DNA from: Sphingomicrobium sp.
GTDB taxonomy: Bacteria; Pseudomonadota; Alphaproteobacteria; Sphingomonadales; Sphingomonadaceae
DNA length: 37,195 nucleotides
Direction of reading: 5' to 3'
Assembly: GCA_046715575.1 (NCBI GenBank)
Contig: JBKJYX010000012.1
Location: forward strand, 1 to 37,195
A model generated the notes under the pieces. It did no database searches. It had not been told where the DNA came from and worked only from the letters and a program-made list of their open reading frames with translations. A program made the position numbers and the translations under genes. Positions 32,288 to 36,008 of the stretch are shown piece after piece (position 1 is the first letter of the stretch; each line of letters starts with the position of its first letter).

Positions 32288-32923
32288 CTAAGTGGTCGCT
32301 TCGAGGATTGCAGTACGCAACTCGGCGATCCCGCTACCGGTTTCGCTCGACGTAGTGAAGATGCGCGGGTGCGCCGCTGGATGCTTGGCGGCTTCGGCCA
32401 CCGTCGTCTCCAGCACTGAGGCCATGTCCGTCGTCTTTACCTTGTCGGCCTTGGTCAGCACGAGGTGGTAGCTGACCGCCGCACCGTCGAGCATGTCCAT
32501 CACTTCATGATCGACCGGCTTCAAGCCGTGACGTGCGTCGACCAGCACCAGCGCGCGCTTGAGCACTGCCCGGCCGCGCAGATAGTCATTGATCAGGAAG
32601 CGCCAGCGCCTGACCATGTCCTTGGGCGCCTCGGCGAAGCCGTAGCCGGGCATATCGACCAGCCGGATCTGAAGCGGCTTTCCGACCTCGAAGAAATTGA
32701 GTTCCTGCGTGCGGCCGGGCGTGTTCGAGGTGCGCGCCAGCCCCTTGCGATTGGCGAGCGCGTTCAACAGCGAGCTCTTGCCGACGTTGGAGCGGCCGGC
32801 GAAAGCGATCTCCGGCACCGTCGGGTCAGGCAGGAACTCGAATCCCGGAGCCGATTTCAGGAAATCGATCGGCCCCGCAAACAGCTTTCGGGCGCGTTCC
32901 GCCAGCTTCTCAGCCGCGTCCAC
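32288..32923 (-). CDS. engB: Ribosome biogenesis GTPase YihA/YsxC
   Basis: G1 'GRSNVGKSS', 'SNTPGRT', 'DMPGYG', 'TKADK'. GTG 32923 overlaps the yidC TAG. Confidence 0.96.
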   Translation of the reverse strand: MDAAEKLAERARKLFAGPIDFLKSAPGFEFLPDPTVPEIAFAGRSNVGKSSLLNALANRKGLARTSNTPGRTQELNFFEVGKPLQIRLVDMPGYGFAEAPKDMVRRWRFLINDYLRGRAVLKRALVLVDARHGLKPVDHEVMDMLDGAAVSYHLVLTKADKVKTTDMASVLETTVAEAAKHPAAHPRIFTTSSETGSGIAELRTAILEATT

Positions 32924-34638
32924 TATCCAGTCGCCGGCGCGGGTTCGTCGATCTTGTCGAGCCCGTAGCGCTTGTACAGCCACCATTGCTGCGCGATCGT
33001 CAGGATGTTCGAGACCACCCAGTAGAGTTGCAGGCCGGCCGCGAACGGCGCCATCACAACCATCATCACCCACGGCATGATGGCGAAGATTTGCTGCTGG
33101 GTCGGGTCCATCTGCGCCGGGTTCAATTTGAACTGCATCCACATGGTGATACCGAGCAAGATCGGGAGGACGCCGATGGCGAGGAAAAAGGGCGGCGTGA
33201 AGGGCAGCAGCCCGAACAGATTGACCGGGGTCATCGGGTCCGCCGCCGACAAGTCCTTGATCCACAGCGCGAACGGCTGGTGGCGCATTTCGACCGACAC
33301 CATCAGCACCTTGTAGAGCGCATAGAACACCGGGATCTGGAGCAGGATCGGCAGGCAGCCGGCAGCGGGATTGATCTTCTCGGTCTGGTAGAGCTTCAGA
33401 ATTTCCTGCTGCTGCTTGGGCTTGTCGTCCTTGTGGCGCTCCTGGATCGCCTTCATCTTCGGCTGCACCTTGCGCATCGCCGCCATCGACTGGAACTGTT
33501 TCTGCGCGATCGGGTACATCAGCAGCCTGACGATGAAGGTCAGGCAGATGATCGCCACGCCGAAATTGCCGGTGGTTTTGAACAGCCACAGGAGCAGGTC
33601 GAAAATCGGCCGCATGAACCATTCGAACCAGCCCCAGTCGACCGACTTGGACAGCTTCGGGATGCCCATGTCCTCGTAGCGGTCGAGAACCGTTTTTTCC
33701 TTGGCGCCGGCAAAGAGATGCGTTTCCGTCGTGACTGCCTTGCCGGGCGGCACGATAATCGGTTCGCGCGCATAGTCGGCCTGATAGGCGCCGTTAGGAG
33801 CCCGGCGGAAGCTCGCCGAAATCGACGCATTCTGCGACGGTGCCAGCGCGGTCAGCCAATATTTGTCGGTGAAGCCGAGCCAGCCGCCGCGGCTGGCAAA
33901 ATGCTCGCCGTTCGGGCCCGCCTCGTCGAGGGTCTCCCAATCGATGCCGTAATTGGCGGCGCCGTTCAAAAATCCCATCGGTCCGACATGCATCGTCCAA
34001 CCAGTGGGATCGGGCGACTTGTTGGCGCGGCTGATCAAGCCGTAGGGTCGCACCGCGATCGCACCGGCACTGGCGTTGGCGATGCGCTGTTTGACCGTGA
34101 ACAAATAATTGTCGTCGACCGACACGGTCTGCTCGAATTGCTGGCCGCCGGGGCTGGTCCAGCTCAGCGTCACCGGCCGGCCCGGAGTGAGGATGGGCGC
34201 GCTTGCCTGCCACACGGTGTCGGGTCCCGGCGCCTGAATGCCCTCGCCAGTCCAGCCGAAGCTGGCGAAATAGCCGCCGGGCGCGCCGGCCGGCGACAGC
34301 AGCCGCACCGGCGGGGACTTCTTGTCGATCGTCTGCCGCTCGCGCAGCAGCACCAGGTCGTCGATCCGCGCGCCGGTAAGGTTGATCGAGCCCTGGAGGC
34401 TGGGTGTCTCGATCCGCACCCGCGGAGTCGAGGCGAGCACGGTCGCGCGGCCCTTGAGCGCCTGCGGCCGGTCGGCGGCGATATCGGCGGGTTGAGCGAT
34501 CGGCTTCGCCTTGCCGTTCTCGACCTGGACGGTCTGCGGCCCGGCGGTCGGCAGGAAGCGGTCGGACACCAGGCTCCAGCCGAGCAGCACCAGCGCGCTC
34601 AGCATGATGGCGAGGATCATGTTCTTATTGTCGGTCAA
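32923..34638 (-). CDS. yidC: Membrane protein insertase YidC
   Basis: N-terminal TM, periplasmic domain, 'VDWGWF', 'NFGVAII', 'NPAAGCLP.LLQIPVF.ALY', 'GLQLYW..SN'. Confidence 0.98.
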   Translation of the reverse strand: MTDNKNMILAIMLSALVLLGWSLVSDRFLPTAGPQTVQVENGKAKPIAQPADIAADRPQALKGRATVLASTPRVRIETPSLQGSINLTGARIDDLVLLRERQTIDKKSPPVRLLSPAGAPGGYFASFGWTGEGIQAPGPDTVWQASAPILTPGRPVTLSWTSPGGQQFEQTVSVDDNYLFTVKQRIANASAGAIAVRPYGLISRANKSPDPTGWTMHVGPMGFLNGAANYGIDWETLDEAGPNGEHFASRGGWLGFTDKYWLTALAPSQNASISASFRRAPNGAYQADYAREPIIVPPGKAVTTETHLFAGAKEKTVLDRYEDMGIPKLSKSVDWGWFEWFMRPIFDLLLWLFKTTGNFGVAIICLTFIVRLLMYPIAQKQFQSMAAMRKVQPKMKAIQERHKDDKPKQQQEILKLYQTEKINPAAGCLPILLQIPVFYALYKVLMVSVEMRHQPFALWIKDLSAADPMTPVNLFGLLPFTPPFFLAIGVLPILLGITMWMQFKLNPAQMDPTQQQIFAIMPWVMMVVMAPFAAGLQLYWVVSNILTIAQQWWLYKRYGLDKIDEPAPATG

Positions 34639-34701
34639 TTCGGAAACCTCGTCATGGAACGGGCCTTGTCATGGCACTGGCCTTGTCACGGAACAGGATC
34701 G
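34635..34701 (-). repeat. 17-bp-period degenerate repeat forming three overlapping hexapeptide mini-ORFs between yidD and yidC
   Basis: Plus-strand units GTCATGGAACGGGCCTT / GTCATGGCACTGGCCTT / GTCACGGAACAGGATCG. Minus-strand ORFs 34689-34669, 34672-34652 and 34655-34635. Confidence 0.8.
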
Positions 34702-34898
34702 TGGCCTTGGCCGCCCCAGGGATGGCAGCGGAAGATGCGTTTCAGCGCCAGCCAGCTACCCTTCGCGGCCCCATAGCGCGACAAAGCGGTGATCGCATAG
34801 GCCGAGCAGCTTGGCGTGTAGCGGCAGCTTGGGGCGAGGACCTTGGACGGGCCCAGCTGCCAGCCGCGAGCAATCCCGATGAGCAGCCGCGCGATCAT
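34686..34898 (-). CDS. yidD: Membrane protein insertion efficiency factor YidD
   Basis: '[10 protein letters not shown]', 'G..KGSWL...RI.RCHPWG..G.DPVP'; ATGA overlap with the rnpA stop. Confidence 0.97.
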
Positions 34899-35359
34899 CG
34901 GCGAAGCTTTTCCAAAGCGCGCTCCAGCTCCTGCCGCAGTTGGCCGAAGTCGCGCTCGATCCCGCCGGCGCGGCCGATCAGCACATGGTCCGAACCGCCG
35001 AAGCCACCGGCCGGCAGGAATTCGCGGGCGAGGGCGCGCAGGCGGCGCTTCATCCGGTTGCGGACGACGGCGCCGCCGATTTTCTTGGTGACGGTGAAAC
35101 CGACGCGAATGGCTTGGTCGCCATCGGCGCGGTCGCGGACAAGCAGGACAAAACCAGGCGTCGCCGCGCGTCGGCCGGCGTTGGCGGCCAGGAAATCGGC
35201 GCGTTTACGAAGGGTGGTTAGGCGCTGAGCTTCTTGCGGCCGCGCGCCCGGCGCGCCGCGAGGATCTTGCGGCCGCCGACCGTCGCGCTGCGGTGACGAA
35301 AGCCGTGCCGCCGCGCGCGGACCAGATTGCTCGGCTGAAAGGTGCGCTTCATCGCTCAT
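34895..35359 (-). CDS. rnpA: Ribonuclease P protein component, apparently N-terminally extended across rpmH
   Basis: Core 'LRKRADF', '[24 protein letters not shown]'. Identity is secure; the start is inferred because no in-frame ATG/GTG/TTG lies between 35359 and the conserved core. Confidence 0.9.
35218..35352 (-). CDS. rpmH: 50S ribosomal protein L34
   Basis: Manual translation [44 protein letters not shown] (44 aa; absent from the ORF track). Confidence 0.98.
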
Positions 35360-35431
35360 GCCCTTAAAATTCAAAGTGAACGTAAGTTCAATGAAAAAAG
35401 GCCGCCGATGGGGCAGCCGCTGTCGTTTGCG

Positions 35432-35460
35432 CCGATAGTGGAGGGGCTTGCCAAAGTCAA
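35432..35460 (-). promoter_or_regulatory. Putative sigma70 promoter of the rpmH-rnpA-yidD-yidC-engB operon
   Basis: TTGACT-N17-TATCGG; predicted TSS near 35425. Confidence 0.65.
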
Positions 35461-35870
35461 TTGGCACGCCCTTCCCGATCGCTCCATTTTTCGGGTGGCT
35501 TGGCGGGGGGATCGGGGATCAGCGTTTCGACTGGCTCTTCGGCGAGTTCGTCCGCCGGGGGTGGGCCTGCAAGCTCCTCGCGCGTCTTGCGCCGAGTCTC
35601 GCGGCGCAGCGCGCTACGGCGCCTCAGGCCCCAATCGGCCCAGCGGCCAATCTTAGGCTGCTGGCGCTTGAACCGGACATAGCGGCGCTTGGCCCACATG
35701 CTGGTCTTCAGCACCATGGCGAGCCCGATCGCGAAGACGAAAATGCCGCCCGGGCCGGGAATCGCCCCGGCCAGTGGCGACAACAGGATGAGCACGACCC
35801 CGACACCGAAGATCGTCCATTCCACCGCGGGGTGGTCGATGAACTTGTCCATTTGGTCGCGGCTGATCAT
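35457..35870 (-). CDS. Small membrane protein, PGPGW-like
   Basis: Hydrophobic hairpin around 'IPGPGG', then 'WAKRRY'. ATG 35870 sits 7 nt after TTGCGC-N17-CACATT (probably leaderless). Confidence 0.65.
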   Translation of the reverse strand: MISRDQMDKFIDHPAVEWTIFGVGVVLILLSPLAGAIPGPGGIFVFAIGLAMVLKTSMWAKRRYVRFKRQQPKIGRWADWGLRRRSALRRETRRKTREELAGPPPADELAEEPVETLIPDPPAKPPEKWSDREGRAN

Positions 35871-36008
35871 GTCCCAGAATGTGGTTGCCTGCGGCGGTTC
35901 GCGCAAGGGAGCTTGCTGACAGCCATGCGCAAGGCGTAGCGTGGCCGTGCCGAATGAGGGGGTTCCCCTGAATACCGATTACGGTCGGCTGCCGCGACGC
36001 GTCGCTCG

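Follow-up and report, generated by a model that had tools for sequence, protein, structure and literature searches.

The original report of the nested rnpA-rpmH pair of Thermus is said to be that of Feltens et al. in 2003. The available text of PMC9841429 describes rpmH as nested in rnpA, with the two starts one nucleotide apart in AUGGAUG, i.e., at an offset of 4. In the accessible portions of papers from 2019-2025, Thermus is the only rpmH-in-rnpA case and one of two long-known nested bacterial genes (PMC9841429; bioRxiv 10.1101/520783; PMC11230408); other nested bacterial genes given there are comS in srfAB of B. subtilis and gndA in gnd of E. coli (bioRxiv 10.1101/520783; PMC11230408). Ambiguous AUGUG/GUGUG start sites are described, in the same text, for E. 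coli pqiA, tamA and narQ (PMC9841429). In the ordinary rpmH-rnpA-yidD-yidC operon, as far as the available excerpts go, rnpA has either an NTGA overlap or a separate weak start (PMC9945441; PMC10941002), and E. coli RnpA is scarce relative to L34, by about 130-fold (PMC9945441).

The locus described here resembles the Thermus pair in that rpmH lies wholly within rnpA, on the same strand and in the -1 frame, with two ATGs in one initiation region, an N-terminally extended RnpA and no rnpA start of its own after rpmH. No report of this layout outside Thermus was found in the literature searched, most subscription papers lying beyond its reach. What is new is its presence outside Thermus, kept across a genus and many related genera, and to judge from the sequences it likely works like the Thermus pair.

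The Locus and Its Two Reading Frames

The window, i.e., the whole stretch of 37,195 nucleotides that was analyzed, carries the following features:

34895..35359, minus strand: rnpA, putative long form, 154 aa; a 46-residue extension over rpmH, then the RnpA core (sequence, ORF list, NCBIfam)
35218..35352, minus strand: rpmH, ribosomal protein L34, 44 aa; wholly within the rnpA frame (ORF list, NCBIfam)
35194..35221, minus strand: junction CTA ACC ACC CTT CGT AAA CGC GCC GAT TTC; first codons of the RnpA core, without a usable start
35361..35365, minus strand: SD-like AAGGG, 8 nt before the rpmH ATG and 1 nt before the rnpA ATG (sequence)
34686..34898, minus strand: yidD, ATGA overlap with the rnpA stop (sequence, NCBIfam)
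32923..34638, minus strand: yidC-like ORF, 571 aa, next operon gene (named by position and by the annotated relative L307)

Read directly, the minus strand is TTTTAAGGGC ATG AGC G ATG AAG. ATG 35359 lies 7 nt upstream of the rpmH start (position -7 below) and opens a frame of 154 codons that has no stop before 34895, stands in -1 relative to rpmH on the same strand and takes in all of rpmH. The preliminary description had reported this stop-free frame, the distances of AAGGG from the two ATGs and the lack of any ATG, GTG or TTG between 35359 and the core, and all of these were borne out on re-reading. The last point extends to near-cognate codons: when ATG, GTG, TTG, CTG, ATT, ATA, ATC, ACG, AAG and AGG are counted, the first 60 codons contain codon 1, ATG, and codon 57, CTG 35191, only, the latter located, as described before, after the conserved Phe56. 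The CTA triplet overlaps the rpmH stop, at the place where other bacteria have NTGA. An in-frame TTG at 35374 (-22) lies in the leader and was absent from the preliminary description; it was rejected as the rnpA start, being not conserved and followed in many relatives by an in-frame stop at -10. Between yidD and yidC, a short direct repeat occupies window positions 34650-34696, and relatives' contigs skip 34 nt there.

Identity of the RnpA Protein

The predicted product matched the NCBIfam rnpA equivalog TIGR00188 over residues 49-153 with 62.3 bits, against a cut-off of 38.35, and PF00825 with 80.5 bits, as the sole match in the genome, which is 75% complete; the rpmH product also scored above its NCBIfam cut-off. 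The AVVRNR motif is present in the RnpA core. A structure model built on a 59-sequence alignment, used in place of a model without alignment (pLDDT 46), had a pLDDT of ~47 over residues 1-40 and ~90 from residue 51, the first 40-46 residues being of low confidence and structureless. Its core displays the fold features of RnpA, i.e., helix 1, the central sheet and the RNR motif, and its best Foldseek matches were solved RNase P proteins (E 2e-8, rmsd 1.8-2.5 A). The extension probably has no function, its sequence simply following from the L34 code, and would then be dispensable.

The genome also contains rnpB (RF00010, 266 bits, G000:C148:3974-4379), and no PIN_5/HARP match was found in it (75% complete). 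With one rnpA, one rnpB and no PIN_5/HARP match in a genome of this completeness, the nested rnpA is most likely the working gene. Among 77 nested loci in which rnpA has no start of its own, the stretch R-x-D-F-L-A-A-N around the Phe is nearly invariant with free third positions; its R, D, F and N are invariant, and it aligns to helix 1 of solved RnpA structures. Helix 1 is thus under coding selection, and translation must start upstream of it. Some sphingomonad RnpA frames (L162, L167, L216, L307) carry long C-terminal tails, for totals of 191-201 aa.

Predicted Promoter, Leader and Ribosome Binding Site

Two further features were predicted upstream of the start codons:

35432..35460, minus strand: predicted sigma-70 promoter of the rpmH-rnpA-yidD-yidC operon (TTGACT 35460-35455, 17 nt, TATCGG 35437-35432)
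35394..35418, minus strand: leader hairpin with U-run, terminator-like, between the promoter and the start codons (1 found, 1.5 expected by chance)

Transcription is predicted to start near 35423. A strict consensus scan did not detect the promoter at 35460-35432, but the pattern TTGAC-17-TA occurs in 105/109 loci with ATG at -7 and in 59/62 without, and the -35 box and spacer of the window are identical to those of a mapped Z. mobilis promoter. A promoter at this position leaves GTG 35467 outside the transcript, as had been proposed, and that codon was rejected as the rnpA start. Upstream, window positions 35457-35906 (minus strand) hold a 149-aa membrane-protein-like ORF with a weak, below-cut-off match to TIGR02611, and the 3' end of this ORF overlaps the -35 box of the operon.

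Within the leader hairpin, seven pairs are kept in 16-18 of 18 leaders, with no compensatory changes. The hairpin/U-run pattern was present in 97/104 nested and 40/53 non-nested leaders, and an Rfam search over 34600-35900 returned no family at gathering score. The hairpin resembles an intrinsic terminator and, on this pattern, may attenuate the operon.

In 79/103 nested loci the last base of the G-rich SD core stands at -9 from the rpmH start; a U-rich stretch precedes the core, and a second SD is absent. A distance of 1 nt between an SD and an ATG is too close for SD-directed initiation. Since the SD ends 1 nt before the rnpA ATG, the rnpA start is, in our reading, weak and probably independent of an SD. 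The SD suits the spacing of rpmH; going by this geometry, it more likely serves rpmH, in competition with the weak rnpA start. Of the single shared SD in the preliminary description, the single site therefore stands, and its shared use is doubtful. Calculated SD energies did not separate nested from non-nested loci (-6.3 versus -6.1); the anti-SD motif used was not taken from the host, whose 16S 3' end was not found in the assembly. The whole 7-nt spacer ATGAGCG is conserved, not the ATG alone, which leaves room for another constraint on the spacer.

Conservation in the Genus

In each of the 14 analyzable congeners, from 18 drawn, ATG stands at -7, the frame is open and rnpA has no start of its own. 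The four left out were two without a match (G008, G009), one cut by a contig end (L008) and one, G016 (L029/L030; 77% complete), in which indels fuse the frames. In a pattern search allowing up to three mismatches, 146/151 genus genomes matched (143/148 without three unpublished genomes); of the other five, four have no protein match to the locus and one is cut by a contig end. Across 150 matches, the three unpublished genomes with ATG included, the codon at -7 is ATG in 147, TTG in two and TCG in one, i.e., ATG or TTG in 149/150, and the TCG belongs to a second copy in G760.

All 30 genus loci that were read are open through rpmH and lack a canonical start of rnpA's own. The triplet over their rpmH stop is CTA in 18, TTA in six, CTG in five and GTA in one, and seven of the 30 have no near-cognate codon from +125 to four codons before the Phe. 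Relatives with the same junction and stops in this frame, which the preliminary description had named as refuting evidence, did not occur among the congeners. Among the best database matches, 116/119 share the N-terminus, although gene callers applied to metagenomes give the long form and are not independent evidence. Public reads told nothing of initiation or expression, the best runs containing at most 26% of the words and the contigs from four runs being those of relatives. On these comparisons, i.e., the 14/14 congeners and the 116/119 matches, an assembly error as the cause of the missing start is ruled out.

Conservation in the Sphingomonadaceae and the Order

A family draw of 200 genomes gave 197 matches, of which 89 were read (29 best-scoring, 60 picked by place) and 87 analyzed, L088 and L111 having no rnpA match nearby. 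ATG at -7 was found in 31/87, which is not an unbiased frequency since only 89 of 197 loci were read, partly the best-scoring. All 31 are in the -1 frame and open, and six of them also have an own start. Of five loci with TTG or GTG at -7, four are open. Among the 51 loci without a start at -7, 24 are in the -1 frame, 14 are open through, 10 have stops in rpmH and 45 have an own start.

A second set came from a scan of the species collection for ATG at -7, in which at least 120 stretches were listed of an estimated ~1800. Sixty-four of these were named as Sphingomonadaceae, including Sphingomonas, Sphingobium, Sphingomicrobium, Allosphingosinicella, Stakelama, Parasphingopyxis, Polymorphobacter and others. 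Without L170 and L197, which meet a contig end, all 62 loci, chosen only by the ATG at -7, are open and keep register over 15 junction lengths; 22 of them also have a canonical start of their own. The preliminary description had proposed checking whether the upstream ATG and open frame are conserved exactly where rnpA lacks its own start. The open frame indeed accompanies the upstream ATG throughout (31/31, 62/62), and most loci without that ATG have an own start (45/51), but the match is not exact, given the own starts in 6/31 and 22/62 loci and their absence from 6/51. A short junction without a start at -7, against which it had also warned, was found in two family loci, L089 and L459.

Among the matches listed, the other taxa with ATG at -7, after 11/56 loci in which no RnpA was found had been left out, included six sphingomonad-like and six Chlamydiota loci that are nested. 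The remaining taxa listed, which served as a control, were nested in 2/33, both with own starts. Single nested-looking loci were seen in Ignavibacteria (L251), Camelimonas (L193) and another alphaproteobacterial family (L122), each with its own start, and these may be due to chance. In other families of the order, 0/12 genomes had ATG at -7 with an open frame. Across 400 genomes of the class, five ATGs at -7 occurred outside the family and none at -4; of the two such loci that were read, one is open with its own ATG and the other is out of frame.

A tree built from L34, the RnpA core, YidD and part of YidC placed the nested state in several deep branches, with one large clade and several tips having lost it, and at least 12 state changes are needed. 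Tips within the nested clade that lost the start at -7 mostly have an own start (L044/L051, L035, L058, L081, L066), L089 being the exception. Only five supported independent pairs were available (median p 0.5, not significant), so that an association between the start at -7 and an own start is not established free of kinship.

Of 10 long RnpA forms from named isolates, the protein collection lacks nine. In S. parapaucimobilis (L307), RefSeq starts rnpA at an ATC on the last base of rpmH, with the ATG at -7 and the open frame present. The record in question (L307:1201-1788) is called a plasmid yet carries rpmH-rnpA-yidD-yidC and may be a piece of chromosome.

How Far Chance Accounts for the Open Frame

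The caution in the preliminary description that a stop-free -1 frame is common proved justified. This frame is open inside rpmH in 41/51 non-nested family loci, and 40% of random synonymous recodings of rpmH are open in it, so that the open frame alone is weak evidence. Stop-forming T is found at 0/531 sites in nested genes (47 expected) and at 14/287 in non-nested genes (60 expected); the latter are T-depleted as well, through a general depletion of T before A, which makes this a weak test of stop avoidance. By comparison, an ATG at -7 precedes 4/459 SD-led long ORFs of the window's genome.

A canonical start after rpmH is missing from six of the 51 non-nested family loci (L057, L063, L089, L104, L107, L112), and L459 combines TCG at -7 with a CTGA junction. 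In L104 (G113:C7:73478-73609), the -1 frame is closed and the rnpA frame is open only from +91; that frame contains none of seven start-like codons, and ACG codons follow the rpmH stop. These six loci and L459 indicate that non-canonical or other starts probably exist in the family.

Occurrence in Other Lineages

In Chlamydiota, the 29 best-scoring loci from a 100-genome draw comprised four that are open through rpmH and 25 that are closed. All four open loci have an upstream ATG (at -7, -7, -10 and -25) and no own start, and of the 25 closed loci 21 carry their own start, in most cases NTGA. Two further records, of ~37% G+C, are also open through rpmH. The nested loci seen in this phylum are L154, L155, L201, L217, L248, L269, L278, L285, L287 and L291, at offsets of -7, -10 and -25, some of them with ~37% G+C; L269, labelled Chlamydia trachomatis, resembles L248. 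In three other Chlamydiota loci, L292, L293 (ATG at +44) and L284 (ATG at +76), the rnpA frame is open only from inside rpmH, and these are possible partial overlaps as read from the sequence.

The exact Thermus spacing ATG-N-ATG is common in metagenome contigs. Of the 120 loci listed in a scan for it (L308-L427), 27 without a detected RnpA were left out. Of the remaining 93, 72 are nested and 57 of these have no own start. They mostly have CTGA junctions and belong to a few related groups, one large group carrying GAGGAGGCC-ATG-N-ATG together with a CTGA junction.

Where Translation of rnpA Probably Starts

From the sequence and its conservation, we consider it quite probable that ribosomes start at ATG 35359, read through rpmH and make a 154-residue RnpA; the genus and family comparisons support both the nested layout and this product, as first proposed. 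Three other readings were weighed.

By termination-reinitiation, RnpA could instead start from a non-canonical codon located at the rpmH stop or immediately behind it (CTG of CTGA, ATC, ACG), the ATG at -7 then being a conserved part of the rpmH binding site. Among the 77 nested loci without an own start, 34 have a CTG junction and 75 have a near-cognate codon of some kind after +125; the six non-nested loci without a canonical start, L459 and L089 among the family loci, and the RefSeq ATC start in S. parapaucimobilis also speak for such starts. Neither the window nor seven of the 30 congeners, however, has a near-cognate codon at the junction, where codon and position vary freely (CTA, TTA, GTA, ATA, CTG), and under reinitiation there would be no need for the frame to keep register across 15 junction lengths, or for the ATG to be replaced by TTG only. 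To judge by its codons, a non-canonical start after rpmH cannot act in the window; as a general account we regard this reading as unlikely, and where relatives carry such a codon, it may be used alongside the ATG at -7.

A -1 ribosomal frameshift late in rpmH, yielding an L34-RnpA fusion, would account for the kept register and the missing start, and would suit L104, which lacks any start and whose rnpA frame is open only from +91. It leaves the near-invariant ATG at -7 unexplained, the junction folds no better than shuffled sequences (z 0.44), and by eye the tail of the window's rpmH contains no heptamer slippery site; we consider it very improbable. A start within the core, from the RAPMPGF Met and hence without helix 1, can be dismissed, since that Met, although present in 52 of the 77 nested loci without an own start, is Thr (ACG) in the window, as in 22 of the 77, and the R-x-D-F-L-A-A-N stretch upstream of it, which aligns to helix 1, is conserved in protein sequence while its third codon positions vary freely; on this coding evidence, starts inside the core are excluded.

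With initiation at ATG 35359, both starts would fall in one initiation region, ATG-AGC-G-ATG. The SD, spaced for L34, would direct most ribosomes to rpmH, leaving a minority for the rnpA ATG, a weak start that is probably SD-independent, and this competition would yield much L34 and little RnpA from one mRNA. The 46-residue extension would be floppy, as predicted. We infer that the layout arose near the base of the Sphingomonadaceae. Its precursor would have been a common NTGA start/stop overlap, in which the start codon degenerated after initiation had passed to the upstream ATG; the layout would later have been lost several times, usually with the gain of a new own start.

A broader reading, which we favor with reservations, is that nested rnpA-rpmH is recurrent rather than confined to Thermus. 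It would have been reached independently with offsets of -7 in Sphingomonadaceae, -7, -10 or -25 in Chlamydiota and -4 in several uncultured groups, with switching within one family; in the -7 form the L34 SD would be a decoy that sets RnpA output against an SD-independent start, and thousands of database entries would carry a wrong RnpA start.

With the layout present across a family of alphaproteobacteria that can be cultured and manipulated genetically, the mechanism can be tested in mesophiles, and both gain/loss pairs and ATG/TTG variants occur there naturally. The case is relevant to how a single binding site splits ribosomes between two essential proteins at very unequal levels and to the origin of overlaps between two old genes. 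It also bears on annotation, through the RefSeq ATC start in one checked record and the 9/10 long forms missing from the protein collection, and any edit or knock-out of rpmH in such hosts would affect rnpA too.

Comparison with Known Systems

ZMO1625 of Z. mobilis ZM4 is presumably rnpA. The available parts of PMC7566282 give ZM4 a strong transcription start site, 1669290, with TTGACT, 17 nt, TATTCA and an 8-nt discriminator, and an unrevised annotated start of ZMO1625 58 nt after it. Locus L054 has the same promoter hexamers and an ATG at -7 located 58 nt after the equivalent position; if ZMO1625 is rnpA and the leaders are equal, the ZM4 annotation already uses the long form. Those parts of PMC7566282 and four supplements yielded no RnpA peptide, start evidence, termination site or comment on a long form. 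The strong start site with this promoter, TSS_3664 in Data Set 1, is assigned to the small RNA Zms15 (PMC7566282), which, given the promoter match with L054, may be the 5' end of the rpmH-rnpA mRNA.

The locus shares its gene order with the ordinary operon, and the junction geometry in the window is that of an NTGA overlap. What differs is the loss of the start at the overlap, now CTA, in favor of a conserved upstream ATG. An SD favoring L34 agrees with the general requirement for much L34 but little RnpA, as given in the available text of PMC9945441. The E. coli AUGUG/GUGUG sites likewise have competing starts in different frames at one binding site, but in E. coli the two codons overlap, with a shift of 2 nt, and the alternative ORFs are short; in the present locus the starts lie 7 nt apart, and each opens the frame of an essential protein. 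With comS and gndA the locus shares same-strand, out-of-frame nesting; in those cases a small new gene with its own internal start lies inside an old one, whereas here an old gene is extended over its neighbor.

The likeness to Thermus claimed in the preliminary description holds for the nesting and the upstream start and not for the spacing, the offset being 7 nt here (ATG-AGC-G-ATG) against 4 nt in AUGGAUG. The loci differ further in that the SD ends 1 nt before the rnpA ATG here, so that sharing is doubtful, and in that the hosts are alphaproteobacterial mesophiles, in a family that has lost the layout repeatedly. The lack of nested loci in the 12 genomes from other families of the order, together with the different offset, points to convergence rather than common descent, in support of the independent origin first suggested, and the sphingomonad layout is probably convergent with that of Thermus.
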